Below are positions 5,800 to 28,589 of a DNA stretch of 64,000 nucleotides, piece by piece. This DNA is from an uncultured Alphaproteobacteria bacterium. Its GTDB lineage: Bacteria; Pseudomonadota; Alphaproteobacteria; Caulobacterales; Caulobacteraceae. The stretch lies in contig OY970153.1 of the NCBI GenBank assembly GCA_963706385.1, forward strand, positions 943,578-1,007,577, read 5' to 3'. The position numbers were made by a program, and so were the translations under genes. The notes under the pieces were generated by a model. That model had not been told where the DNA came from, made no database searches, and was given only the letters and a program-made list of their open reading frames with translations. Position 1 is the stretch's first letter; every line of letters starts with the position of its first letter.

Positions 5800-7878
<2,079 letters not shown>

Positions 7879-7894
7879 ATGAAAGCACTCCTCC

Positions 7895-8006
7895 TAGAGC
7901 ACGATGCGATCAGGCGGAATCGCCTGATCGTTGAATCGTGCTCTAAATTCGAAAGTTTGAGCGCGTTCTGGTCGCAAAACCGGGTCCACTTTTGCGGAAC
8001 GCGCTC
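7895..8006. repeat. Intergenic double stem-loop element (two tandem hairpins, each ending in GCTCTA)
   Basis: Hairpin 1 spans 7895-7945: TAGAGCACGAT..GATCAGGCG gaat CGCCTGATC..ATCGTGCTCTA. Hairpin 2 spans 7959-8006: GAGCGCGTTC (28 nt) GAACGCGCTC. It resembles, from memory, a dispersed alphaproteobacterial intergenic repeat class. Confidence 0.6.
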
Positions 8007-8024
8007 TAGGGGAAGAGCTCGCGC

Positions 8025-8456
8025 TTAGAGCCCGGCCGCCGTCGCACCGTCCTGGTCGGTTGAAGCATCACGGGCCCCTGGCACCAACGGCGACTCGTCG
8101 GCGTTCATCGGCGGATCGAGCGTCTCCAGCAGTTCGAGGTGCTCGCGCCTTCGAACGGCGGCGGCGAAGTTGAGCCGCGTATAGAGCCCTTCGGCGCCGA
8201 ACCTGGCCTGGGCCTCGGCCCAGCGCGCCCGAGCGTGCAGGGCCAGGTTGTCGGTCATGCCGATGCAGACCACGCGAGGACCGTCCTCGGCATCCTTCAC
8301 GTACAGATAGTTGCCGCCCATCGGCGAGAGGGGGCGGCCCTCCTTGAACAGGATGAACCTCAGGTGCCCGCCCGACGCCACCCGACAGTCGATGTGGTCC
8401 CGCACAAGACCCTCCCTCGCGGCGCAAAATCCAATCGATGCGCCAATCGACGCCAC
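8025..8456 (-). CDS. Hypothetical protein with a possible degenerate GIY-YIG-like core
   Basis: GNYLYVKDAEDGPRVVCIGMTDNLALHARARW...RREHLELLETLDPPMN loosely follows GIY(x9-11)YIG...R...E..LI...P..N. The start is uncertain (M1 or M46). Confidence 0.35.
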   Translation of the reverse strand: MASIGASIGFCAAREGLVRDHIDCRVASGGHLRFILFKEGRPLSPMGGNYLYVKDAEDGPRVVCIGMTDNLALHARARWAEAQARFGAEGLYTRLNFAAAVRRREHLELLETLDPPMNADESPLVPGARDASTDQDGATAAGL

Positions 8457-8600
8457 GAACGTGACGCGGTTGCGTCCGAACTGCGGCGAATGACGAGGTC
8501 GGAGCCACGATCACGGCGTCGTGATGCCCTGTCGGCCAAACGAACGCCGGTTTGGCGATCCCCGGCGCGGATGCGACACTGAGCCGATGAGGAGTCCCCG

Positions 8601-10088
8601 ATGAAGATGCCCACGCCCGATCCGGAGGTCTTGCGCCGCAAGGCCGAGATCGTCGCGGCCCTGGCGGCGATCGTGCCGGGCGAAGGGGTGATCGCCGATG
8701 TCGAGCGGCTGGCCGCCTATGAGAGCGACGGCCTCACCGCCTATCGCCAGACGCCGATGGTGGTGGTGCTCCCCGCGAGCGCCGAGGAGGTCTCCAGGGT
8801 GCTGGCCTGGTGCGCGGCCAACCGGGTCAAGGTGGTGCCGCGCGGGTCGGGCACCTCGCTGTCCGGCGGCGCCCTGCCGCTGGAGGACGGAGTGGTGCTG
8901 GGCCTCTCGCGGCTGAATCGGATCCTGGAGATCGACTACGACAATCGCGTCGTGGTGGTTCAGCCGGGCGTGACCAACCTGGCCATCACCCAGGCGGTCG
9001 AGGCGCGGGGCTTCTTCTACGCCCCCGATCCGTCGAGCCAGATCGCCTGTTCGATCGGCGGCAACGTGGCGGAGAACTCCGGCGGGGTGCACTGCCTGAA
9101 ATACGGCCTGACCACCAACAATGTGCTGGGGGTCGAGATGGTGCTGATGGACGGCGAGATCATCCGCGTCGGCGGCAAGCACCTGGACGCCGGCGGCTAC
9201 GACCTCCTGGGCGTGATCGTCGGTTCGGAAGGCCTCTTGGGCGTGGTCACCGAGGTCACCGTGCGCATCCTGCGCGCGCCGCGGACCGCCCGCGCGGTGC
9301 TGGTGGGTTTCGCCGAGGTGGAGGACGCCGGCCGCTGCGTCGCCGAGATCATCTCCGCGGGGATCATCCCGGCGGGCATGGAGATGATGGATCGGCCCGC
9401 GATCCACGCCGCCGAGGCCTTCGTCCACGCCGGCTATCCGCTGGACGTCGAGGCGCTGCTGATCGTCGAGCTGGACGGGGTGGAGGCGGAATGCGGCCAC
9501 TTGCTGGACCAAGTCCTGGCCATCGCCCGGGAATGCGGGGCCAGCATGACCCGCACCGCCGCCGATGAGGCCGAACGCGCCGTCTTCTGGGCCGGGCGCA
9601 AGGCCGCCTTCCCGGCGATGGGGCGTGTCTCACCAGACTATTATTGTATGGACGGCACCATTCCCCGCGCCCAACTGCCCAGGGTGCTGCGCCGGATGCG
9701 CGAGCTGTCCGACACCTATGGCCTCGGCGTCGCCAACGTCTTCCACGCCGGCGACGGCAACCTGCATCCCTTGATCCTCTACGACGCCAACCAGCCCGGC
9801 GAGTTGGAGCGGGCCGAGGCGTTCGGGGCCGACATCCTGCGCCTCTGCGTCGAGGTCGGGGGCGTCTTGACCGGCGAGCACGGGGTGGGGGTCGAAAAGC
9901 GCGATCTGATGCCGGAGATGTTCAACGCGGTCGACCTGGCCCACCAGCAGCGGCTGAAATGCGCCTTCGACCCCGACCTGCTGCTCAATCCCGGCAAGGT
10001 GTTTCCCACCCTGCATCGCTGCGCCGAGCTTGGGCGGATGCATGTGCACCAGGGCGCCCTGCCCTTCCCGGACCTGCCGCGGTTCTGA
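8601..10088 (+). CDS. glcD: Glycolate oxidase subunit GlcD (FAD-linked oxidase)
   Basis: 495 aa with an FAD_binding_4 type N-terminus (VVPRGSGTSLSGGALP). GAGGAG RBS. Followed by glcE and glcF. Confidence 0.9.
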   Translation: MKMPTPDPEVLRRKAEIVAALAAIVPGEGVIADVERLAAYESDGLTAYRQTPMVVVLPASAEEVSRVLAWCAANRVKVVPRGSGTSLSGGALPLEDGVVLGLSRLNRILEIDYDNRVVVVQPGVTNLAITQAVEARGFFYAPDPSSQIACSIGGNVAENSGGVHCLKYGLTTNNVLGVEMVLMDGEIIRVGGKHLDAGGYDLLGVIVGSEGLLGVVTEVTVRILRAPRTARAVLVGFAEVEDAGRCVAEIISAGIIPAGMEMMDRPAIHAAEAFVHAGYPLDVEALLIVELDGVEAECGHLLDQVLAIARECGASMTRTAADEAERAVFWAGRKAAFPAMGRVSPDYYCMDGTIPRAQLPRVLRRMRELSDTYGLGVANVFHAGDGNLHPLILYDANQPGELERAEAFGADILRLCVEVGGVLTGEHGVGVEKRDLMPEMFNAVDLAHQQRLKCAFDPDLLLNPGKVFPTLHRCAELGRMHVHQGALPFPDLPRF

Positions 10089-10090
10089 CG

Positions 10091-11329
10091 ATGGGCGGGG
10101 TGGTCCAGCGGATCGAGCCGCGCGAGGCGCGCGAGGTCGAGGCGGCCCTCGCCTGGGCCAACGCCGAGCGCAAGGCCGTCGCGGTCGAGGGCGCGGGAAG
10201 CAAGGCGCGGATCGGCTGTCCGTTCGAGGCGGACCTGGTGCTGTCGCTGGCCGGCCTGACCGGGGTCCTGAGCTATGAGCCGTCGGAGCTGGTGCTGACC
10301 GCCCTGCCCGGCACAAAGGTCGCGGAGATCGAGGCGCTGCTGGGCGCGCGCGGCCAGCGGCTGGCTTTCGAGCCAATGGACCACGGCCCGCTGTTCGGCG
10401 CCGAGCCGGGCCGAACCACGCTGGGCGGGACCATCGCCGCCAACGCCTCGGGTCCCCGGCGGATCAAGTTCGGCGCCGCGCGCGACCATTTCCTGGGCTT
10501 TGCCGCCGTGTCCGGCCGCGGCGAGGCGTTCAAGGCCGGCGGCAAGGTGGTCAAGAACGTCACTGGCTATGACCTGTCAAAGCTGATGGCCGGCTCCTGG
10601 GGAACCTTGGCGGTGCTGACCGAGGTGACGGTGAAGGTCATGCCGCGGCCGCCCGAGGCGGCGAGCCTGCTGATCGCCGGCGCGCCGGACGGCCTCGCCG
10701 TCCGGGCGATGAGCGCGGCGCTGAGCGCGCCCGCCGAGGTGACGGGCGCGGCCCATCTGCCGGCCAGCGTCGCGGCCCGCGCGCCGGTCGCGCAGGTCGC
10801 CGGCGTCGGCGGCGCCGTCACCGCCATCCGCATCGAGGGCGTCGGCCCGGCGATGACTCCCAGCGCCTGGTCGGTCGGCGGCGCGCTGCCCGGTCTGACG
10901 ATCATCGAACAGCTGGACGCGGAAACAACCGCGCGGCTGTGGCGCTGGATCCGCGACGCCGAGGCGTTCGCGGGCGATGCGCGTCAGGTCTGGCGGCTGT
11001 CGCTGGCCCCGATGGCCGGGCCGGCCGCGGTCGAGGCGATCGGGGCGGTGATCGACATCGAGGCCTTCTACGACTGGGGCGGCGGTTTGGTGTGGCTGGC
11101 CTGCGCCGACGATCCCGGCGCCGGATCGGTGGTGCGCGGCGCGGTCGCGCGGCTTGGCGGGCACGCCACCCTGGTTCGCGCCCACCCGTTGATCCGCGGC
11201 GCGATCGGCGCCTTCCAACCCGAGCCCCGGGCGCTGGCGGCGCTGTCGCGGCGGATCAAGGCTGGCTTCGACCCCAACGGCGTGCTCAATCCCGGCCGGA
11301 TGTGGCCGCTTCGCACCGACGAGGGCTGA
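10091..11329 (+). CDS. glcE: Glycolate oxidase FAD-binding subunit GlcE
   Basis: Starts MGGVVQRIEPREAREVEAALAWA..., 3 nt after the glcD stop. The track ORF 9644..11329 is an upstream extension overlapping glcD. Contains KNVTGYDLSKLMAGSWGTLAVLTEVTVKV. Confidence 0.85.
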   Translation: MGGVVQRIEPREAREVEAALAWANAERKAVAVEGAGSKARIGCPFEADLVLSLAGLTGVLSYEPSELVLTALPGTKVAEIEALLGARGQRLAFEPMDHGPLFGAEPGRTTLGGTIAANASGPRRIKFGAARDHFLGFAAVSGRGEAFKAGGKVVKNVTGYDLSKLMAGSWGTLAVLTEVTVKVMPRPPEAASLLIAGAPDGLAVRAMSAALSAPAEVTGAAHLPASVAARAPVAQVAGVGGAVTAIRIEGVGPAMTPSAWSVGGALPGLTIIEQLDAETTARLWRWIRDAEAFAGDARQVWRLSLAPMAGPAAVEAIGAVIDIEAFYDWGGGLVWLACADDPGAGSVVRGAVARLGGHATLVRAHPLIRGAIGAFQPEPRALAALSRRIKAGFDPNGVLNPGRMWPLRTDEG

Positions 11330-20528: not shown

Positions 20529-20592
20529 GGGAATTATCCCTTTGACAAAGTGACCACAAGCGCTAGTATGGCCCCATTGAATGAGGCCAGCC

Positions 20593-21531
20593 ATGAGCGA
20601 CTTTTCAAACCCGATCTTCCACGACGAGACCAAGGCCCGCGCATGGCTTGAAGCGCATCTGTGGCCGTATGGTCCGGTATGTCCGCATTGCACCGTCGTC
20701 GGCCACGCCACGGTGATCAAGGGCAAGACGGCGCGTGCTGGCCTGTATCAGTGTCAGGCGTGCGAGGAACAGTTCACGGTCACGGTCGGCACGATCTACG
20801 AGCGCAGCCACGTTCCGTTGAACAAATGGCTAGGCGCAACGCACCTCATGATGGCGTCGAAGAAAGGCATGAGCGCCCTTCAGATCGGTCGCATGATCGG
20901 CGTGACGTACAAAACCGCTTGGTTCATGTGCCATCGCATCCGCGAAAGCCTGCGCGAGACCAGTCCGACGCCGCTTGGCGGAAAGGGCAAGATCGTCGAG
21001 GCCGATGAAACCTATGTGGGCGGCAAGGACAAGAACCGTCACGCCTGGAAACGCAAGCACGTTCCAGGCCCCGGCGCGAAGGAAGCGGTGGTGTCGTTGG
21101 TTGAACGCGGCGGCCGTGTCCGCAGCGCCCACGTCAGCGACGTGAACAGCAAGAACCTGCGCTTGGTCCTGACCGAGGAAATCCACGCCGCCACCCACGT
21201 CATGACCGACACGGCCCGCGCCTATCCCGCGATCGGCGCCAAGTTCGCCCAGCACTCGATGGTCAATCACAGCATTGACGAATACGTGCGCGGCGAGGTT
21301 TCGACAAACACCGTAGAGAGCTATTTCGCCATCCTGAAACGCGGGATCGTCGGGACGTTCCATCATGTCTCGCCCCAGCACTTGAAGCGCTACGTCGGCG
21401 AGTTCGACTATCGCTACAACACTCGCACCGCGCTCGGTTACAGCGACGCCGAGCGCTTCGCTGAAGCCATCCCCGGCATCGTCGGCAAGAGGCTCACCTA
21501 TCGGCGGACTGGTGGACGCGCCGAAGCCTAA
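20593..21531 (+). CDS. IS1595-family transposase (N-terminal zinc ribbon plus DDE domain)
   Basis: MSDFSNPIFHDETKARAWLEAHLWPYGPVCPHCTVVGHATVIKGKTARAGLYQCQACEEQFTVTVGTIYERSHVPLNKW...VEADETYVGGK...TDTARAYPAI...HSMVNHS...EYVRGEVSTNTVESYFAILKRG. This is the classic ISXO2-like/IS1595 pattern. Confidence 0.9.
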   Translation: MSDFSNPIFHDETKARAWLEAHLWPYGPVCPHCTVVGHATVIKGKTARAGLYQCQACEEQFTVTVGTIYERSHVPLNKWLGATHLMMASKKGMSALQIGRMIGVTYKTAWFMCHRIRESLRETSPTPLGGKGKIVEADETYVGGKDKNRHAWKRKHVPGPGAKEAVVSLVERGGRVRSAHVSDVNSKNLRLVLTEEIHAATHVMTDTARAYPAIGAKFAQHSMVNHSIDEYVRGEVSTNTVESYFAILKRGIVGTFHHVSPQHLKRYVGEFDYRYNTRTALGYSDAERFAEAIPGIVGKRLTYRRTGGRAEA

Positions 21532-21555
21532 ACCGAAGCGAGGGAGGAAGAAGCC

Positions 21556-21786
21556 GTGTCCATCGAAATCCGAGAAACCATCGTAACGCCCATGGAAAAC
21601 GGTTACGGCGTTCAGCTTCGTATTTCTGACGTGACCAGCGAAGACGAATCCGCCGCATTTGTTCTTCGCCTGAGCGTTCAAATTCCAAAGACCGCGACAG
21701 ACCAGCTTTTCCTGATTGAACGCGAGGCGTTGGCGGCTGGAAATCGGGTTCTGCGCGACTTGATAGATGCTCGGAAAACGACATGA
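21556..21786 (+). CDS. Hypothetical 76-aa protein (transposon cargo)
   Basis: GTG start, 8 nt after GGAGG and 24 nt after the transposase stop. No recognisable motif. Confidence 0.45.
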   Translation: MSIEIRETIVTPMENGYGVQLRISDVTSEDESAAFVLRLSVQIPKTATDQLFLIEREALAAGNRVLRDLIDARKTT

Positions 21787-21881
21787 CGCAGGCTCTCTCA
21801 TCCGCTATTGTGTGAGCGGGTTGAGCGGCTGTGGCGGCCGGAACCTATCGACAGCGGCGGGGCTGCAACCCCGCCCGTCGT

Positions 21882-22217
21882 CTACCGCCCTATAATCTTT
21901 CCTGTCTTAGCGTCGTGCAAGGGGTCGTTTCCCCAATTCTGATTCTGCGGCGAATTTAGAAATTCGTCTGCTGTTGGGAGTTCTTTGGCGCCAACCGGAT
22001 TGCTGCAAAGTATCGAACCGGGGCCGCTTGAATAGCAATATTGCAGCGTTCCAGTGCGGGTATCGACCCGCCATACAGCGCCAGAATTTCCGGCCGGCGC
22101 AATCGCCCACGATCCCGCCGTGGGCAGTGATTTCGGGGGGGAAGGCATAGGCGCTGAAACGGGCGCCTTGTTGCAGGCCGCCAACAATAGAGCCGCCAAG
22201 AAAACGGGCGCTCTCAT
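21882..22217 (-). CDS. Hypothetical lipoprotein (transposon cargo)
   Basis: MRAPVFLAALLLAAC|NKAP has a signal peptide with an L-A-A-C lipobox. ATGA overlap with the upstream small ORF. Confidence 0.6.
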   Translation of the reverse strand: MRAPVFLAALLLAACNKAPVSAPMPSPPKSLPTAGSWAIAPAGNSGAVWRVDTRTGTLQYCYSSGPGSILCSNPVGAKELPTADEFLNSPQNQNWGNDPLHDAKTGKIIGR

Positions 22218-22378
22218 TTATCCCTCGGTCGCTTAGCTGGACTCGACTCCGCCTTCGGTTTGGCCTTCCGATGTATCGGGCCGTGCTTGGCGGCGGCGTC
22301 AATGGCGCGCTCGAACCGCTCCCAGCCATCCGGGCGCAGTTCGGGGGGCGCGTCGGTCCGATTGGGGGTGTTTGCCAT
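22214..22378 (-). CDS. Hypothetical small basic protein, about 54 aa (transposon cargo)
   Basis: MANTPNRTDAPPELRPDGWERFERAIDAAAKHGPIHRKAKPKAESSPAKRPRDK. Translationally coupled to the lipoprotein gene. The start is uncertain; alternatives go up to 22426. Confidence 0.4.
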   Translation of the reverse strand: MANTPNRTDAPPELRPDGWERFERAIDAAAKHGPIHRKAKPKAESSPAKRPRDK

Positions 22379-23054
22379 GGCTCGCGCACCTAAAGGGCGC
22401 CACACGTTCATGCCGACGCGGCGCATTGATCCTGTGCTCCAGAATGCCGTGAAACGACACGCGCGTCACGCCGGGGAAATCATCTGGTGCTGGAACATTC
22501 TCGCGGACCAACTCTACGAGCTGCTGGTCTCGTTGCTGATCGAAAAGAGCGCAGACCGGGCATGGGGGATCGCGTACGGAATCTGGACGCCGCTGCAAAG
22601 TGACGCCGCGAAGCGACAGATAATCCAAACCATCGCCGACGCGGTTCTAGCCAAGAATCCAGATCGCCTTGAAGCGGTGACGTGGCTCTTGCGCCAGACA
22701 AAAGACCTCGCCCAGCATCGGAACGATGTCGCCCACGTCGCGATTAAGTTCGCGAATGTAGGTGGCATCACCGGCAAGCCGCCCAAGATCATGCTGGTCC
22801 CCGCTGGCGCCTCTGCCAGCAAAGAGAGGGTGGAGCGCTTGCAAGATCACCCGACCGCGACGGTCTGGCGCCGCGCACGCGGCGATCTCATGGCGTTGTC
22901 GCGGTACGCCTTTCTTTTGTCGGCGAACATTCGAGGCGACGCTGCCGCTCCATGGCCTCGTAAGCCACGGTTGCTAGCCACTCCACCGAAGTCGAAGAAA
23001 GCCAGCCGAAAAGGTCGTCGTCGGCTGCCCAAAGCGCCGCCGCCCCCGCCTTAG
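22377..23054 (+). CDS. Hypothetical all-alpha protein with HEPN-like R-x4-H motif and Lys/Arg/Pro-rich tail (transposon cargo)
   Basis: Sequence ...LLRQTKDLAQHRNDVAHVAIKF... (R115-N-D-V-A-H120, nt 22719-22736), preceded and followed by predicted helices. C-terminus PRKPRLLATPPKSKKASRKGRRRLPKAPPPPP. The track start at 22260 would overlap the opposite-strand genes. ATG 22377 forms CCATGG with the divergent ORF start. Confidence 0.5.
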   Translation: MARAPKGRHTFMPTRRIDPVLQNAVKRHARHAGEIIWCWNILADQLYELLVSLLIEKSADRAWGIAYGIWTPLQSDAAKRQIIQTIADAVLAKNPDRLEAVTWLLRQTKDLAQHRNDVAHVAIKFANVGGITGKPPKIMLVPAGASASKERVERLQDHPTATVWRRARGDLMALSRYAFLLSANIRGDAAAPWPRKPRLLATPPKSKKASRKGRRRLPKAPPPPP

Positions 23055-23140
23055 CCATAGCTGCCGTTACTTTAGTCGCCGGCCTGTCACGCCCGCTCTG
23101 ATCTAGCTGTTGACGTGACTTTGTCAAAGGGATAATTCCC

Positions 23141-23148
23141 CGGCATTG
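23141..23148. repeat. Right copy of the 8-bp target-site duplication (CGGCATTG)
   Basis: Identical to 20521-20528. Confidence 0.85.
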
Positions 23149-23174
23149 ACAAGAACAAATCATGAACATATAGT
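23147..23174 (+). promoter_or_regulatory. Sigma-70-like promoter (TTGACA-16 nt-TATAGT) with a LexA box in the spacer
   Basis: TTGACA at 23147-23152 and TATAGT at 23169-23174. The spacer contains GAACaaatcatGAAC. The TTG of the -35 element is part of the transposon target duplication. Confidence 0.55.
23153..23167 (+). promoter_or_regulatory. Alphaproteobacterial LexA (SOS) box, copy 1: GAAC-N7-GAAC
   Basis: GAACAAATCATGAAC matches the GAAC-N7-GAAC / GTTC-N7-GTTC direct-repeat consensus described for alphaproteobacterial LexA. Confidence 0.65.
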
Positions 23175-23200
23175 GCCGATCTCACCATAAGGAGATCGCC

Positions 23201-23363
23201 TTGGCGCTGATCGAAAGAAGGTTCCAACTTGAGAACAAGGCTGGGGATGACCATCAGCGGCTGCCAGCACGGCAAACTGGAGTTGAAGCGTTGAGACGCG
23301 CCCGTTTGCCCCGGGTATCTACGACGACAACGATTCGCACAGTGAGGCGGTTACGTATTACCC
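23201..23363 (+). pseudogene. Truncated 5-prime fragment of a paralogue of the 23706..24464 gene
   Basis: It has the same GGAGATCG-N2-TTG translation start context as copy 2. The N-terminus LALIERRFQLENKAG resembles LPQNDQTFRLTNDVG. The reading frame runs straight into the antisense tRNA-Leu gene. Confidence 0.45.
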
Positions 23364-23450
23364 TGGTGCGGGCGGCCGGGGTCGAACCGGCACGGGGTTT
23401 CCCCCAACGGATTTTAAGTCCGTTGCGTCTACCAGTTTCGCCACGCCCGC
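23364..23450 (-). tRNA. tRNA-Leu (anticodon UAA), class II with long variable arm, CCA encoded
   Basis: Reverse complement: GCGGGCG TG GCGAAACTGGTAGACGC A ACGGA CTTAAAA TCCGT TGGGGGAAACCCCGTG CCGG TTCGACC CCGG C CGCCCGC ACCA. There is a 7-bp acceptor stem, a TTCGA T-loop and anticodon TAA. Confidence 0.93.
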
Positions 23451-23483
23451 ACTGTCGGCAGACATACCCCGCCCGCGCCGAAC

Positions 23484-23522
23484 TTTTAAGTCCGCTGCGT
23501 CCACCAATTCCGCCCCGTCCAC
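23484..23522 (-). pseudogene. tRNA-Leu 5-prime-half pseudo-copy
   Basis: TTTTAAGTCCGCTGCGTCCACCAATTCCGCCCCGTCCAC matches 23412-23450 of the intact tRNA at 32 of 39 positions. Similarity stops at the 3-prime side of the anticodon loop. The acceptor half (GTGGACG) does not match the intact gene. Confidence 0.6.
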
Positions 23523-23656
23523 CTGAAGCGGGCAGGGTTACAGGCGGAGCGCGCCCACTTCCAGCCCCGCCGCGCCGCCGCGTCCAGCGGGTCCGGCGTG
23601 ATGCGCTCGACCCCGGCCGCGGTCAGGGCGGTCCGGCGATCGAACAACCTCTATAA

Positions 23657-23671
23657 GAACAAATCACGAAC
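23657..23671 (+). promoter_or_regulatory. Alphaproteobacterial LexA (SOS) box, copy 2: GAAC-N7-GAAC, followed by TATAAT
   Basis: GAACAAATCACGAAC, then TATAAT at 23673-23678. The 26-nt core AAGAACAAATCA(T/C)GAACATATA(G/A)TGC is shared with copy 1. Confidence 0.65.
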
Positions 23672-23705
23672 ATATAATGCGTCAACATACCGCCAGGAGA
23701 TCGAT

Positions 23706-24464
23706 TTGCCCCAGAACGATCAGACTTTTCGGCTGACGAACGATGTTGGAAGCTTGGGATTGAGGTGCGCGGCGACGGGCGTTTCGCTCGCGGGCGTGCC
23801 GCTGCTACGTAAGACCCTCGTGGGATTGGAACCCCGGCCGACCGAAGAAATCGGCGCGCTGTTGGAAGAGGCCTATGGCCAGCCCGTCGATCCCGCCAAT
23901 GTGTCGCCCGGACTCGATGTCATCGCTCAGGCGCTCAATCGGGGAGATCTCGGACGGGCGATGATCGCCGCGGTACACCTAAGACTTCCCGAATTGAGCT
24001 GGGACGGTGCGGCGCGCATCGCCAAGGCGCACGGCGGCTTGACCAAATATGACCCCGACGAACCGCGGGACGAGCGCGGACGATGGACGACCGATGGGGC
24101 TTCGGGCCCGAACATGGCAAGTTCGCCCGGAGCCTTCCGTCACGACTCCCGGCCTGACGTCATGACGCCGATCCCGGTCGCCAACCGCCGTCTGCCCGAC
24201 GACGATCCCGCCTCCATCGTGTGCAACGTGGCGACCAGGCAATGTCAACTCAGCGCCCTGGACGACAAGACCAGACCATACTTCGACAGCTGCTGGAAGG
24301 CGGAAAACGCTTGCGAGCTTGTCGTATCCGCAAGTCGATCAAGCCCAGAACAACCGTTCTACGTTATATATCCAGACAGGACGGTTGTATCCATTTTGGA
24401 CGGAACCGCCATCATAACGCACATCGCCGGCACGAGACTGCAGCGTCCCTTTAGCGGGCGGTGA
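23706..24464 (+). CDS. Hypothetical protein (about 252 aa) downstream of LexA box 2
   Basis: TTG start, 5 nt after AGGAGA. The track ORF start at 23598 lies upstream of the putative promoter. It contains the motif YDPDEPRDERGRWT and a C-terminal region with four Cys. The composition looks AT-richer by eye. Confidence 0.55.
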   Translation: MPQNDQTFRLTNDVGSLGLRCAATGVSLAGVPLLRKTLVGLEPRPTEEIGALLEEAYGQPVDPANVSPGLDVIAQALNRGDLGRAMIAAVHLRLPELSWDGAARIAKAHGGLTKYDPDEPRDERGRWTTDGASGPNMASSPGAFRHDSRPDVMTPIPVANRRLPDDDPASIVCNVATRQCQLSALDDKTRPYFDSCWKAENACELVVSASRSSPEQPFYVIYPDRTVVSILDGTAIITHIAGTRLQRPFSGR

Positions 24465-24514
24465 TACTACGCATATACGGCAATCCACAATCATACGATG
24501 ACTGAAAATACGCC

Positions 24515-24913
24515 ATGATTTATCGCAACTTTCTCACGTTCACGATGTCGATCGCGATAGCATTTCTCGCCGCATCAGGAGGGTTTACAATGAACAACGA
24601 CGTAGAGAACGGCAATGATTTTCCGCCGATCTCACCAGCCGGGGAAACGGCTGCACCGAGCAACCCCGCATTTGTAAATCAATGTCTGTCACAACTGAAT
24701 TCCTTGTCCGGGATGGGAAAAATCACACCCGGCCCCAACCTGCTGACCAAGAACAATCGATGGGGATCCGTTTTCCGCGCCGATTTTTCGATTGGAAATG
24801 AAAAAACCGGTCCACTTAGAAATAGATTGGTCTGCTGGAAGCAGAAAGATGGGCAAATCAGCATCATGCTTGCAATTGGTCAAGCTGTGCCGGCCCTGAA
24901 TAGGGCCAACTGA
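24515..24913 (+). CDS. Hypothetical small exported or membrane-anchored protein (132 aa)
   Basis: N-terminal hydrophobic segment MSIAIAFLAASGGF. AT-rich codon usage compared with its surroundings. No family recognised. No clear RBS. Confidence 0.4.
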   Translation: MIYRNFLTFTMSIAIAFLAASGGFTMNNDVENGNDFPPISPAGETAAPSNPAFVNQCLSQLNSLSGMGKITPGPNLLTKNNRWGSVFRADFSIGNEKTGPLRNRLVCWKQKDGQISIMLAIGQAVPALNRAN

Positions 24914-25074
24914 TTTGAACTCGGGCGGATAGAGTCGAATTGGCGTTATGGCCAATAACTGATCGGCGCGCGGCTGGCTCAGCTCGATGATTCGTCCGAA
25001 TTCAGAAGTTCAAACGTTTAGGGCGTATTGGGCGCCGAAACCGCGTACGCTTTCGGCCAACACGCCTTGGTGGC

Positions 25075-25857
25075 CTAGATCGCCACCGGGGGGGCGCCCG
25101 GCTCGTCCGGAGTGATGTTGGCCACCCCCGCGGCGGTCAGGACGGCGACCAGCTCGGCCACCGCCCTTTCGACCTCGACCGGATCGCGGCCGCGGATCAC
25201 CAGGTTGGAGCCGTAACCCGCCGGGCCGAAGAACGGATAGCTGCCCAGCGAAAGCGCCGGGTGGGCCTTGGCCACGGCCTCCAGCGGCTCGGCCAGCACC
25301 CCCTCGCCCGTGCCGTCGACGCGCACGTTGCGGGCGACCACCACCGCCCCGCCCTTCAGCCGCCAGCCCACGTCCTCCAACATGCCGCGCATGATCTGCG
25401 GCACCCCGGCCAGCACGAAGACGTTGCCGATCATGAAGCCCGGCGGGCCGGCCACCGGGTTGCGCACCAGCTCGCCGCCCTCGGGCACGCGCGCCATGCG
25501 CCGGCGCGCGGCGTTCAGCTCGACGCCCGGCCGGGCCAGCATCATGGCGATGATCTCGGGGTTCTCGTACAGCGGCACGCCGAACGCCTCGGCCACACAG
25601 TCGGCGGTGATGTCGTCGTGGGTCGGGCCGATGCCGCCGGTGGTGATAACGTAATCGTAGCGCGCCCGCAGCGCGTCGAGCGCCGTGATGATCTCGTCCT
25701 TGACGTCGCCCACCACCCGCGCCTCGGCCAGGTCCACCCCGTGGGCGCCAAGATATTTGGCGATGACGTTGAGGTTGGTGTCCTGGGTGCGGCCGGACAG
25801 GATCTCGTCGCCGATGATCATCACCGCGGCGGTCACTCGATCTTTGCTCGCGTTCAC
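25075..25857 (-). CDS. CinA-like molybdopterin-binding (MoCF_BD) domain protein (competence/damage-inducible protein A family)
   Basis: [29 protein letters not shown]...[23 protein letters not shown] is the typical CinA N-terminal domain. Confidence 0.85.
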
Positions 25858-25912
25858 GCCCGTCCCTTCCTATCTCCGCCCATCCTTGGGTCCCGTTTCG
25901 AGTAGGCCGTCG

Positions 25913-26695
25913 ATGCAATTCCCGCAACCGCTGGCGCGCGGCGTTCTCGTCCGGCGCTACAAGCGTTTCTTCGCCGAAGTGGCGCTGGAGGGCGGCGGCG
26001 AGGCCACCGCCCATTGTCCCAACCCCGGCGCCATGCTCGGGCTGAACATGCCGGGCGTAACCGTATGGCTTTCCAAGTCGCCCGACCTGAAACGCAAGCT
26101 CCCCTACACATGGGAATTGGTGGAAGTCCCCGGTGATGGGCCGGATGGTTTTGTAACGTGTGGTATCAACACCATGCACCCCAACAGGATCGCCGCCGAG
26201 GCCATCGCCGAGGGGCTGATCCCGGAGCTGGCCGGCTATCCGATCCTGAAGCGCGAGGTGAGGTACGGCGAAAACAGCCGCGTCGACCTGGTGCTCGAGG
26301 CGCCGGACCGGCCGGCCTGTTTCGTCGAGGTGAAGAGTGACAAGTCCTTTTTACAACGCGACCTGAGGCCGGATCATAGTCTTTGGCTCGAAGTGAAAAA
26401 CTGCCACCTTTCAAGGACTAAAGGGGTCGCAGAATTTCCCGACTGCGTGGCGGCGCGGTCGCTGAAGCATCTGCGGGAGCTTCAAACGATGGTGGCGGAG
26501 GGCGACCGAGCCGTTGTGCTCTTCGTCGTCCAGCGCACCGATTGCGAAGCGTTTTCGGCTTGCCGCGAACTTGACCCGGCCTTCGCGCGCGGACTCGATG
26601 AAGCGGCCGACGCAGGCGTTGAGGTGTTAGTCTATGCCTGCGACGTGACTGTCGAGGAGATCAAGATTTCACGGAAGATGGCTTGGCACCGCTAA
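25913..26695 (+). CDS. sfsA: SfsA (sugar fermentation stimulation protein A / DNA-binding nuclease-fold protein); hybrid gene with an AT-richer 3-prime third
   Basis: [28 protein letters not shown]...AHCPNPGAM...NSRVDLVLE...CFVEVK...[18 protein letters not shown]...[13 protein letters not shown]. It is 260 aa. From about 26336 the codon usage becomes AT-richer. Confidence 0.8.
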
Positions 26696-26741
26696 GTGGC
26701 TCAGGATCGATTTGTTTAGTCCTCGCTGGTCACAACCAGAA

Positions 26742-27332
26742 TTACCCCGGTGGATTGAGCTGGGGCGCAAGAATGCTTCGACCAAAATCTGTGTCCAATA
26801 GGAGCACTTCGCCAAGAACCTTTGGCTGAGGTCTACCTGCTGGGTCCAGCAGCGCCTGCCGTTTGACGACTGTGAAAACCTCGGTGTGCCCGTCAGCCAT
26901 CAGCCGAAATGTTTCAATCCTATCATTAGGCGTGTCATATCGAACGATATGGCAGTGGCCGCCCTCGGCGCACGACGCCACCGAGAATGGCGCAACTGAA
27001 ATGACTTCGCGCTTTGGCTCGACCCACTCGCGCCCAACGAAGTCGGAAGCCTTCGTCCCTTCCGGTAGCGGTAACCCCAAATCCTGCGAACCGAGAAAGC
27101 GAATATCGCCTTTGCGACCCGAAGGTGAAGACAGCAGGTCCAAGTGGGCCTTCTGAAGGGTTAGTTCGAGCGCTTGAAGAGCGTCCACGCCCCACCCCGC
27201 CGATTGGCGCTCTCCCGATGGCCATGCGATTATGTATTCGCAACGGTAGTTATCATCGACGGCGACAGGCGCGTGGATGGTGAGCGAAACAAATTCACCT
27301 CGCATATCGAATGCCCGCTCGGCGATGATCAT
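26742..27332 (-). CDS. Hypothetical 196-aa protein (orphan cargo between the two sfsA 3-prime copies)
   Basis: MIIAERAFDMRGEFVSLTIHAPVAVDDNYRCEYIIAWPSGERQSAGWGVDALQALELTLQKAHLDLL... The N-terminal half resembles, from memory, an uncharacterised family with the G.D.LQAL..L motif. The track ORF 26742..28511 beyond 27332 is antisense to map and to the sfsA fragment. Confidence 0.5.
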   Translation of the reverse strand: MIIAERAFDMRGEFVSLTIHAPVAVDDNYRCEYIIAWPSGERQSAGWGVDALQALELTLQKAHLDLLSSPSGRKGDIRFLGSQDLGLPLPEGTKASDFVGREWVEPKREVISVAPFSVASCAEGGHCHIVRYDTPNDRIETFRLMADGHTEVFTVVKRQALLDPAGRPQPKVLGEVLLLDTDFGRSILAPQLNPPG

Positions 27333-27380
27333 GACCTGCCTCAAAAGTGATGGTTGCAAGGTTGATCGGGTTGGTGGGCG

Positions 27381-27752
27381 GAGGTCAAGCTGGACGACGG
27401 CCTGTGCCGATAAGGTCCCGACGGGCCGTGACTCGAGGTCAAGAACTGCCACCTCTCGCGCGGCGCGGGCCTCGCCGAATTTCCCGACAGCGTGACCAGC
27501 CGGGGGCTGAAGCACTTGGGCGACCTCACCCGCGAGGCGCGGGCCGGCTCGCGCGCGGTGATGCTGTTCGTGGTCCAGCGCACCGATTGTGTGGCCTTCG
27601 AGGCCGCCGCCGACCTCGACGGCGCCTATGCGGCGGGCCTCTTCGCCGCGGCGCAAGCGGGCGTTGAAGTTCTGTGCTATGATTGCCACATAGACCCGAC
27701 CCGCATCCGCCTGAATCGCCGCCTGCCCTGGCGGTCCGGGCCGCAACGCTAG
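27381..27752 (+). pseudogene. Displaced, decaying second copy of the sfsA 3-prime third
   Basis: [100 protein letters not shown]... is collinear with 26327-26695 and G+C-rich like the backbone. There are two in-frame stops near its beginning and no upstream half. Confidence 0.75.
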
Positions 27753-27764
27753 AGACCGCGCTTG

Positions 27765-28589
27765 ATGACCGAGACCGACGCCCTGGAAACCGCCATCCGC
27801 CGGCGCGGCTCGGCGATCAAGATCCATGGACCCGAGGACTTCGAGGGCATGCGCCGCGCCGGCAGGCTGGCGGCCGAGTGTCTGGACATGCTGACCGCGC
27901 ACGTCACGCCGGGGGTGATCACCGACGAGCTGGACCGGCTGGCCCGCGAGTTCATCCTGGACCATGGCGCGGTCCCGTCCTGCCTCTACTATCGCGGCTA
28001 TCCCAAGACCCTGTGCATCTCGCCCAACCACGTGGTCTGCCACGGCATCCCGGGCCCGCGTCCCTTGCGCGACGGCGAGATCGCCAACATCGACGTGACC
28101 GTGACGCTGGACGGCTGGTACGGCGACACCAGCCGCATGTATCTGGTGGGCGAGGTTCCGACCCGCGCGCGCCGGCTGGTCGAGGTGACCTATGAGGCGC
28201 TGGAGCGCGGCATAGCCGCCGTGAAGCCCGGCGCGCGGCTGGGCGACATCGGCCACGCCATCCAGTCCTATGTCGAGGCCCAGCGCTGTTCGGTGGTGCG
28301 CGACTTCTGCGGCCACGGGGTCGGCCGGGTGTTTCATGACGCCCCCAATGTCCTGCACTTCGGCCGCCCAGGCGAAGGCGAGGTGCTGCGGGCCGGCATG
28401 TTCTTCACCATCGAACCGATGGTGAACCTCGGCAAGCACCAGGTGAAACTGCTGGCCGACGGCTGGACGGCGGTGACCCGCGACAAGTCGCTGTCGGCCC
28501 AGTGCGAACACGCGATCGGCGTGACCGAGACCGGCGCGGAGGTCTTCACCCTCTCTCCCGCGGGCCTGTTCCGGCCCGTCACGGCCTGA
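27765..28589 (+). CDS. map: Type I methionine aminopeptidase
   Basis: …VCHGIP…DGEIANIDVTV…DGWYGDTSRMY…HGVGRVFHD…FTIEPM… are the metal-ligand motifs of Map. Confidence 0.92.
   Translation: MTETDALETAIRRRGSAIKIHGPEDFEGMRRAGRLAAECLDMLTAHVTPGVITDELDRLAREFILDHGAVPSCLYYRGYPKTLCISPNHVVCHGIPGPRPLRDGEIANIDVTVTLDGWYGDTSRMYLVGEVPTRARRLVEVTYEALERGIAAVKPGARLGDIGHAIQSYVEAQRCSVVRDFCGHGVGRVFHDAPNVLHFGRPGEGEVLRAGMFFTIEPMVNLGKHQVKLLADGWTAVTRDKSLSAQCEHAIGVTETGAEVFTLSPAGLFRPVTA

Follow-up and report, generated by a model that had tools for sequence, protein, structure and literature searches.

We analyzed a 64,000-nucleotide stretch of DNA (the window) from an uncultured Alphaproteobacteria bacterium of the family Caulobacteraceae (assembly GCA_963706385.1, contig OY970153.1, positions 943,578 to 1,007,577) and focused on a 1108-bp unit that lies in its sfsA gene (26335–27440 plus one AA dinucleotide). 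The genes around it run in the order cinA-like (−), sfsA (+), a 196-aa open reading frame (ORF) (−), a second piece of sfsA (+), map (+), and radC. The cinA-like gene (MoCF_biosynth by Pfam; 25075–25857, −) is the conserved left neighbor, and map (methionine aminopeptidase, Peptidase_M24; 27762–28589, +) is the conserved right neighbor.

The first sfsA ORF (260 aa, 25913–26695, +; assigned by Pfam) is a hybrid. Its host part extends to 26332 and is followed by the left crossover dinucleotide AA (attL core; 26333–26334, +), within the lysine codon of the catalytic E-V-K motif. From there, the gene reads in frame through the left arm of the unit (26335–26389, +), a P′ half-site that is read as an 18-aa linker and contains the conserved DNA motif TCCTTTTTACAACGC (26345–26359), and into an element-borne surrogate for the last third of sfsA (26390–26695, +), which restarts at E-V-K-N-C-H-L. 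Next come the cargo gene (196 aa, 26742–27332, −), with a DUF6968 domain at its N-terminus and a C-terminal half of about 100 aa, and the right end of the unit (27333–27440, +). The latter comprises the region upstream of the cargo gene, what looks like a fossil junction (TGGTGGGCGGAGGTCAAG, 27372–27389), 45 nt resembling a decayed linker with two in-frame stops (27390–27434), and GAGGTC. The right crossover dinucleotide AA (attR core; 27441–27442, +) leads into the displaced original last third of sfsA (27443–27752, +), which has no 5′ part or start codon and whose stop lies 9 nt upstream of map.

A first-pass annotation, made from the letters of the window, had described two diverged, collinear, direct copies of the last third of sfsA, and an alignment recovered both (26327–26695 and 27381–27752) at a spacing of 1045 nt. 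From E-V-K to the stop codon, they are 64.5% identical in DNA (194/301) and 57% identical in protein (58/101). Both open with the shared motif it had pointed out, GAGGT(G/C)AAG, followed by 54 or 45 nt and then GA(A/G)GT(G/C)AA(A/G)AACTGCCACC. The hybrid gene matches the Pfam families SfsA_N (3.2e-22) and the SfsA RE domain (6.7e-48), the latter in two stretches separated by an insert of ~18 aa directly past the catalytic E-V-K. The downstream segment (27435–27749) has a Pfam SfsA match of its own (3.5e-29), which rules out a chance repeat. In total G+C (GC) and G+C at third codon positions (GC3), the pieces differ: 0.65 and 0.82 in the native 5′ part of sfsA, 0.60 and 0.69 in the surrogate end, 0.57 and 0.60 in the cargo ORF (coding strand), 0.70 and 0.87 in the displaced end, and 0.69 and 0.91 in map, with a GC of 0.50 in the linker. 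The last 101 codons of sfsA are thus AT-richer, at a GC3 of 0.69 vs 0.82–0.94 in the host parts. The earlier description of an AT-rich upstream copy completing an intact 260-aa frame, a downstream copy of backbone-like composition with no 5′ part, and an AT-rich 196-aa ORF on the opposite strand between them was borne out in each respect.

In order to place the locus among its relatives, we surveyed one genome per species and obtained 80 sfsA loci (numbered here with the prefix L) in Phenylobacterium, Caulobacter, and relatives. The best of them is only 71% identical, so the window's own species is absent from this set. An in-frame insert of 13–18 aa occurs at the same codon, after the catalytic E-V-K, in 16 of the 80 loci. 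A displaced 3′ fragment stands before map in 10 of these 16 linker-bearing loci, and all ten fragments begin at x-x-K-N-C/V-H-L. In 9/16, the first E-V-K either lacks the lysine or is wholly degenerate, with the second copy intact. Where sfsA is uninterrupted, its end lies 30–150 nt from map. Relatives supplied both of the counterparts to which the first-pass annotation had pointed, namely uninterrupted sfsA genes, including L094, and longer inserts bearing a recombinase (L085, L088, L089, L090/L091, and L004).

The surrogate end of the window shares 73–81% identity with those of other linker-bearing loci, and the window's displaced end is 71% identical to the 3′ end of the uninterrupted L075 gene. 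In a neighbor-joining tree built from the last 97 SfsA residues, no surrogate end fell inside the large group that holds most uninterrupted genes, and that of the window grouped with the other surrogate ends. Most displaced fragments fell in the uninterrupted-gene group, with the window's fragment beside L075. Composition and tree grouping together set the foreign segments apart from the host segments. Two collinear direct copies are also what would remain if the 3′ end of sfsA had been duplicated in tandem locally and the copies had then diverged, with an unrelated gene inserted between them. We give this explanation practically no credence, as the upstream copy is foreign in composition, is nearer to the surrogate ends of other species than to its own neighbor, and belongs to a unit that occurs in other backgrounds.

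The evidence for those backgrounds comes from Logan contigs of four runs (X1–X4; moss and plant metagenomes, one labeled organism). They match 26333–27454 at ~99%, with few differences per several hundred bases, and do not match the 5′ part of the window's sfsA. In X1 and X2, the ~99% identity begins exactly at 26333, and leftwards lies another sfsA (..CGCTGCTGGCTGGAGATC), reading as another species' C-W-L-E-I. On the right, identity stops past a conserved GAACTGCCACCT, at 27454 or 27460: two runs diverge after 27454 as ..MRTQGLAEF.., and one after 27460 as ..RRPGLAEFPDC... Judging from these contigs, the unit sits in at least three other sfsA backgrounds, and because it is ~99% identical there, the window unit has moved recently. 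Its right end (27333–27440) is likewise ~99% identical in X2, X3, and X4 ahead of different 3′ ends and hence moves together with the rest of the unit. It follows that the first GAGGTCAAG and the 45-nt stretch carrying two stops (27381–27434) are part of the mobile unit and not of the host fragment, which starts at the AA of the second AAG (27441–27442). The two in-frame stops that the first-pass annotation saw near the start of the downstream copy are indeed there, but they are located in the right end of the element and not in the host fragment. An alternative that we rejected is that the 45 nt are the host's older linker from an earlier element, because 27390–27434 is ~99% identical before different host 3′ ends.

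Recombination between homologous flanks deserves consideration at this point, since exchange within the 5′ part of sfsA and within map could have delivered the window copy with no site-specific step. The window unit has no recombinase, and the interval between sfsA and map is a general variable spot, beyond this family of insertions alone: in most species it varies, from 0.03 to 5 kb, and holds unrelated genes, often with no linker in sfsA. Some linker-less genes have a surrogate-type end (L007, 81% identical to the window's, and L037, which also groups with the surrogate ends), and short 3′ remnants of the last 25–50 codons stand before map in the linker-less loci L021, L037, L068, and L076. 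Such genes show that homologous recombination does reshape the locus. Apparently, the linker can be lost through recombination between the two W-L-E-V-K-N repeats, leaving a scarless allele replacement. As the origin of the window copy, we nevertheless regard this route as unlikely. Its junctions could fall anywhere in the flanks, whereas with different sfsA genes the left junction is precisely at the AA and the right one is within 12–18 nt of the right-hand AA. It would also need far more similar flanks than we found; no contig of at least 90% identity spanned 26143–26269 in X1–X3, and coverage of 25889–26332 by contigs of at least 90% was low.

The crossover point can be read from a natural pair of alleles. 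One Joint Genome Institute (JGI) sample set contains both alleles of one population, the uninterrupted L094 and the occupied L084, whose flanks are 99.8–99.9% identical. The 1.67-kb insert of L084 lacks a recombinase and carries a SIR2-like gene of 357 aa. In L085, the right end and the displaced fragment are those of L084 but a recombinase is present, so that one population has empty, recombinase-less occupied, and recombinase-remnant alleles. Aligning L094 with L084 gives an attB of ..CTGGAGGTC-AA-GAACTGCC.. (core region GGTC-AA-GAAC), an attL of ..CTGGAGGTC-AA-CAATGTCC.. (GGTC-AA-CAAT), and an attR of ..GACAGGTG-AA-GAACTGCC.. (GGTG-AA-GAAC). Mismatches on either side bound the exchange to the AA dinucleotide, which is the signature of a serine recombinase. 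Because only the AA is left for exchange, a 9-bp target duplication and a tyrosine-type overlap are ruled out. The first-pass annotation had taken the 3′ end of the gene as the target; the actual site lies two thirds into sfsA, in the lysine codon of the catalytic E-V-K. This attB is a pseudo-palindrome (..TGGCTGGAGGTC-AA-GAACTGCCACC..) that codes for the W-L-E-V-K-N catalytic strand of the PD-(D/E)XK domain.

These alleles also bear on another reading, a DDE transposon that is bounded by terminal inverted repeats (TGTCCAGCCTTTTTACAAC and its inverse) and duplicates a 9-bp target, GGTSAAGAA. L004 and L084 do have 19-nt inverted ends with similar 9-mers on both sides. In the 99.9% identical background, however, the flanking 9-mers are GGTCAACAA and GGTGAAGAA, vs GGTCAAGAA in the empty site, and only an exchange at AA between two different sites gives this pattern. 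The target arms resemble the element arms (GGCTGGA), as for a recombinase site, and no transposase is present inside the element. We therefore consider a DDE transposon extremely improbable.

The reconstructed attP, ..GGTTGTAAAAAGGCTGACAGGTG-AA-CAATGTCCAGCCTTTTTACAAC.., consists of 22-nt inverted-repeat half-sites with a distal match of 15/15 (GTTGTAAAAAGGCTG), and from its sequence it looks like the site of a large serine recombinase (LSR). The inverted attP with two half-sites is present in L004/L084, L088, and L090, where the distance from the AA core to GTTGTAAA or GGTGTAAA is 22 nt in each case. An inverted-repeat search of the linker against the right end in 11 loci was clear in L004 only, where the right end GGTTGTAAAAAGGCTGACA is an inverted repeat of the linker motif, and the right arms of most recombinase-less copies are degenerate. 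According to one report, an integrase and two short sites (~40–50 bp) suffice for LSR integration (PMC12286644). A metagenome scan for the arm motif CGCGTTGTAAAAAGGMYTKKWCA returned one match, in an unrelated low-GC contig coding for repeat-rich proteins.

The motif at the start of the linker, (T)CCTTTTTACAACGCG, is conserved across loci and read in two frames, as S-F-L-Q-R in the window and as P-F-Y-N-A in L002, L004, L084, and L090, because of compensating 1-nt indels. The linker is thus conserved as a DNA site and not as a protein feature. Its length is nonetheless a multiple of three with no stop in all 17 of the linkers listed, so selection has kept the reading frame. The lysine codon in the surrogate restart is AAA in 16 of the 17 listed linker loci and AAG in L088, and all intact lysine codons at the host-side first E-V-K are AAG. 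This bias may merely reflect the AT-richer DNA of the elements; AAA could also weaken the regenerated attB-like site against re-integration.

Recombinase genes were found beside the displaced fragment in several relatives. L085 has a 252-aa Resolvase ORF that starts ~45 nt from the displaced fragment and is followed by a C5 methyltransferase. A search with this recombinase, a longer version of the one in L004, gave further examples. L088 runs from the displaced fragment through a gene with Resolvase and Recombinase domains (in pieces of 127 and 420 aa, apparently separated by a single frameshift) and ~7 kb of cargo to a linker-bearing sfsA and cinA. L089 (GCA_035551675.1, DASZMV010000061.1) has map, the sfsA fragment, and an LSR that comprises Recombinase and zinc-ribbon domains, spans at least 437 aa, and continues to the contig end. 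L090 and L091 each hold a Resolvase gene, a second small resolvase, and a SacI-like type II restriction-modification pair between the displaced fragment and the linker-bearing sfsA. A truncated resolvase ORF starts 20–40 nt inside the right end of L004, and L087 has one in the same placement. Aside from these genes at the element ends, a second small resolvase-type serine recombinase (190–250 aa) occurs in the interior of several elements (L004 7444–8322, L087 8105–8767, L088 6933–7688, and L090 11508–12083).

All recombinases at the element ends belong to the serine family, and no tyrosine integrase was seen in the loci examined. This affects the model under which the locus was first read. 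The first-pass annotation had proposed an integrative element that brings a replacement gene end and displaces the original end downstream, a view that our data support, and had likened it to e14 and phage 21. In an element of this type, a tyrosine integrase would recombine within a core common to attP and the gene's 3′ end; the window copy would be a remnant that has lost its integrase. The general shape is the same: the gene is intact but has a foreign end, and foreign DNA separates it from its displaced original end. Apart from the family of the enzymes, though, the 2-bp exchange is too short for an overlap region of 6–8 bp, and the surrogate does not run on from the core but restarts after a translated arm. 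An e14-type element is therefore very unlikely, and in its place we find LSR genes and an exchange confined to the 2-bp AA core.

Taken together, we are confident that the window unit is a non-autonomous member of a family of Caulobacteraceae genomic islands that enter sfsA by means of an LSR. We file it as non-autonomous because it has no recombinase gene while relatives with like junctions have one. In the proposed mechanism, the LSR exchanges strands at the AA within the sfsA lysine codon. The P′ half-site necessarily trails the core and is translated in frame as a loop of 13–18 aa. The element then restarts the L-W-L-E-V-K-N strand and supplies its own last third of sfsA, which keeps the gene open, and the host's own last third is displaced downstream with no promoter or start. 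In autonomous relatives, an LSR gene lies within ~50 nt of the core at the right end and is read toward the interior, and cargo is present as well. The window copy probably relies on a recombinase acting in trans or encoded by a neighbor; it would have been moved in trans, or as part of a tandem composite whose autonomous member subsequently left. Its right end may be the product of previous integrations, nested or in tandem, and of a subsequent excision in another register. The first-pass annotation had offered a minimal remnant lacking a recombinase. Minimal and recombinase-less it is, but it is not merely decayed, given its ~99% identical copies in other backgrounds.

Several observations weigh against this explanation. 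The window unit contains no recombinase gene, and a tblastn search of the 64-kb window with two resolvase sequences from L004 returned no matches. Every LSR gene that we found is truncated, frameshifted, or cut by a contig end, and none is complete with both element ends. The left (P′) half-site of the window is canonical, but the right half-site has no distal motif and resembles a host-type arm; GTTGTAAA does not occur at the expected 22 nt from the core in the right arm, and the unit's own junction reads ..GTGACTCGAGGTC-AA-GAGTGACAAGTCC... This right arm looks like a fossil junction, in the order host-type arm, AA, decayed linker, and restart, and it is not a canonical attP half-site as it stands. 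To our knowledge, canonical LSRs do not recombine attL-like sites with attB. No excision product, excision joint, or circular form was seen among the Logan contig matches. Lastly, activity of the hybrid SfsA is predicted only from the preserved reading frames and a structure model built from an alignment.

A broader and more tentative extension is that sfsA of Caulobacteraceae serves as a landing pad for a serine-recombinase cassette system, which we consider possible but rather doubtful. Small units that lack a recombinase and carry a single cargo gene or a few would be mobilized in trans, and each would rebuild the gene and regenerate an attB-like site at the strand restart. Units could then stack and leave in different registers, a process of which the fossil junction at the right end of the window unit would be a relic. 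A second, mirror-image LSR lineage would act at ..G-I-N-T-M|H-P-N.. and bring a substitute 5′ end, so that sfsA would over time become a mosaic of element-derived pieces.

At that second position, we noted an insertion hot spot within sfsA (window 26033–26182; L019 5229–5477; L067 887–1751; L084 7215–7950). L019, L067, and L084 have a displaced 5′ fragment upstream and a working gene with a substitute 5′ part, and in L067 a serine recombinase ORF (MTNAHIYCRFSSSKQ..) begins straight after the displaced 5′ fragment. Codons 41–90 of the window's sfsA have a GC3 of 0.70, vs 0.83 and 0.94 on either side, and resemble the substitute 5′ type. Because of this low G+C and likeness, the window's sfsA may be a triple mosaic.

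Elements of LSRs inside protein-coding genes are known, such as skin in sigK, SPbeta in spsM, A118 in comK of Listeria, and Bxb1 in groEL1. The sfsA elements share with them the Resolvase, Recombinase, and zinc-ribbon domains, a recombinase gene adjoining the attachment site, short sites with inverted half-sites, and an exchange at a central dinucleotide within an ORF. Elements of the skin, SPbeta, A118, and Bxb1 type split or truncate their target until excision, whereas sfsA stays open while the element is integrated, since the element supplies a replacement for a third of the gene and has an attachment arm that is itself translated. In staphylococcal cassette chromosome mec (SCCmec) elements, the 3′ end of rlmH (orfX) is the target of the CcrAB serine recombinases. 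These elements are similar in their enzymes, in the intact target gene, and in having tandem arrays and recombinase-less derivatives mobilized in trans. Their site lies in the last few codons and a few nucleotides are replaced, whereas the sfsA elements replace ~100 codons, duplicate the catalytic strand, and insert a loop. Phage 21 and e14 in icd of E. coli, like islands in tRNA genes, use tyrosine integrases with a surrogate 3′ end. They too bring a replacement end, keep the target ORF intact, and retain the displaced end as a pseudogene fragment, but they differ in the enzyme family, and their surrogate directly continues the shared core, with no translated arm or strand restart.

A parallel for the recombinase-less state is offered by CIMEs and other non-autonomous integrative elements, described for integrative and conjugative elements (ICEs) of Streptococcus, which have attachment sites and no recombinase and are mobilized by accretion with an autonomous element. 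The window unit similarly has junction sites, no recombinase, and several backgrounds, and the surrogate ends regenerate an attB-like site (TGGCTCGAAGTG-AA-AAACTGCCACC) that could accept a second element. CIMEs use tyrosine recombinases, unlike the sfsA unit, for which accretion is suggested by the fossil junction in the right end alone. Among the papers that our literature search covered, none linked sfsA with serine recombinases, mentioned DUF6968, or described an island of this kind.

The target of this family is the most conserved DNA of a housekeeping gene, the codons of a catalytic strand, and yet the gene is not broken. The cost of gene breakage would be avoided because the attachment site is translated as a loop and a new strand and downstream part are supplied. 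Well-studied serine-recombinase elements inside genes mostly break them, and tyrosine-integrase elements with surrogate ends need no translated arm. The loci offer a natural set of attB, attP, attL, and attR, with the empty and occupied alleles of one population and cognate LSR genes. A 1.1-kb unit that has moved with no recombinase of its own raises the question of how serine recombinases move non-autonomous partners. For annotation, sfsA genes with an extra 13–18 aa and "partial SfsA" ORFs near map should be taken as signs of this family and not as sequencing errors.

The hybrid protein has the features that define SfsA, an N-terminal OB domain and a PD-(D/E)XK domain with D...E-x-K (PF17746 and PF03749), and contains E-V-K twice, at residues 139–141 and 160–162. 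In an AlphaFold2 (AF2) model, the second copy, W-L-E-V-K-N (residues 158–163), forms the core strand of the sheet, in a block with a mean predicted local distance difference test (pLDDT) score of ~80, and the first E-V-K copy with the start of the linker (135–148) has a pLDDT below 50. We infer from this model and the preserved reading frames that the hybrid SfsA may be active.

The first-pass annotation had likened the N-terminal half of the cargo protein to an uncharacterized family; this half proved to be Pfam DUF6968 (PF22302), matched at 1.5e-19 over residues 5–88 with 70.1 bits against a cut-off of 27. The N-terminal domain (100 residues) was modeled at a pLDDT of ~98, and a Foldseek search of it against the PDB gave nothing at E ≤ 0.001. 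PADLOC returned no matches for the cargo protein. The only two full-length relatives found, P0001 and P0002 (65–66% identity), are also the only ones with the C-terminal half, the others being stand-alone DUF6968 proteins of ~100 aa. P0001 and P0002 sit in unrelated contexts away from sfsA, one of which adjoins an IS110 transposase. We also considered the cargo N-terminus as a fused remnant of a recombinase start and rejected this, because the DUF6968 match begins at residue 5. Since related elements carry restriction-modification, SIR2-like, and TIR genes, a role of the DUF6968 cargo in defense or immunity is a reasonable guess. Defense genes may be sought in the space behind sfsA, where these three kinds have been seen. 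The TIR-domain gene of L037 (TIR_2, 7.9e-24; 6718–7512) has a GC of 0.52 in a background of 0.65 and lies between sfsA and the short displaced 3′ remnant.

A few further observations concern the wider locus. Relatives of the surrogate end were not found in viral contigs. Two contexts in which sfsA was called as a 118- or 131-aa piece beside map (P0025 and P0095, on long contigs, one labeled np1212) were set aside as uninformative; we judged them to be broken gene calls, probably from long-read assembly errors. Linker-less sfsA genes with unrelated genes before map occur in L012, L013, L017 (about 6470–10190), L023, L030, L065, and L078, such intervals between sfsA and map being 2–5 kb long in many species, and an ORF of ~1110 aa with an N-terminus resembling a secretion signal is common to three species in this position. 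In the window itself, the stretch upstream of cinA (20581–25000) has a low GC (0.56–0.62) and may be a second island. It holds a tRNA-Leu(TAA) gene (23364–23450, −), an ORF that looks like an IS1595-family transposase (20581–21531), and two ORFs with no Pfam match (23598–24464 and 24515–24913).

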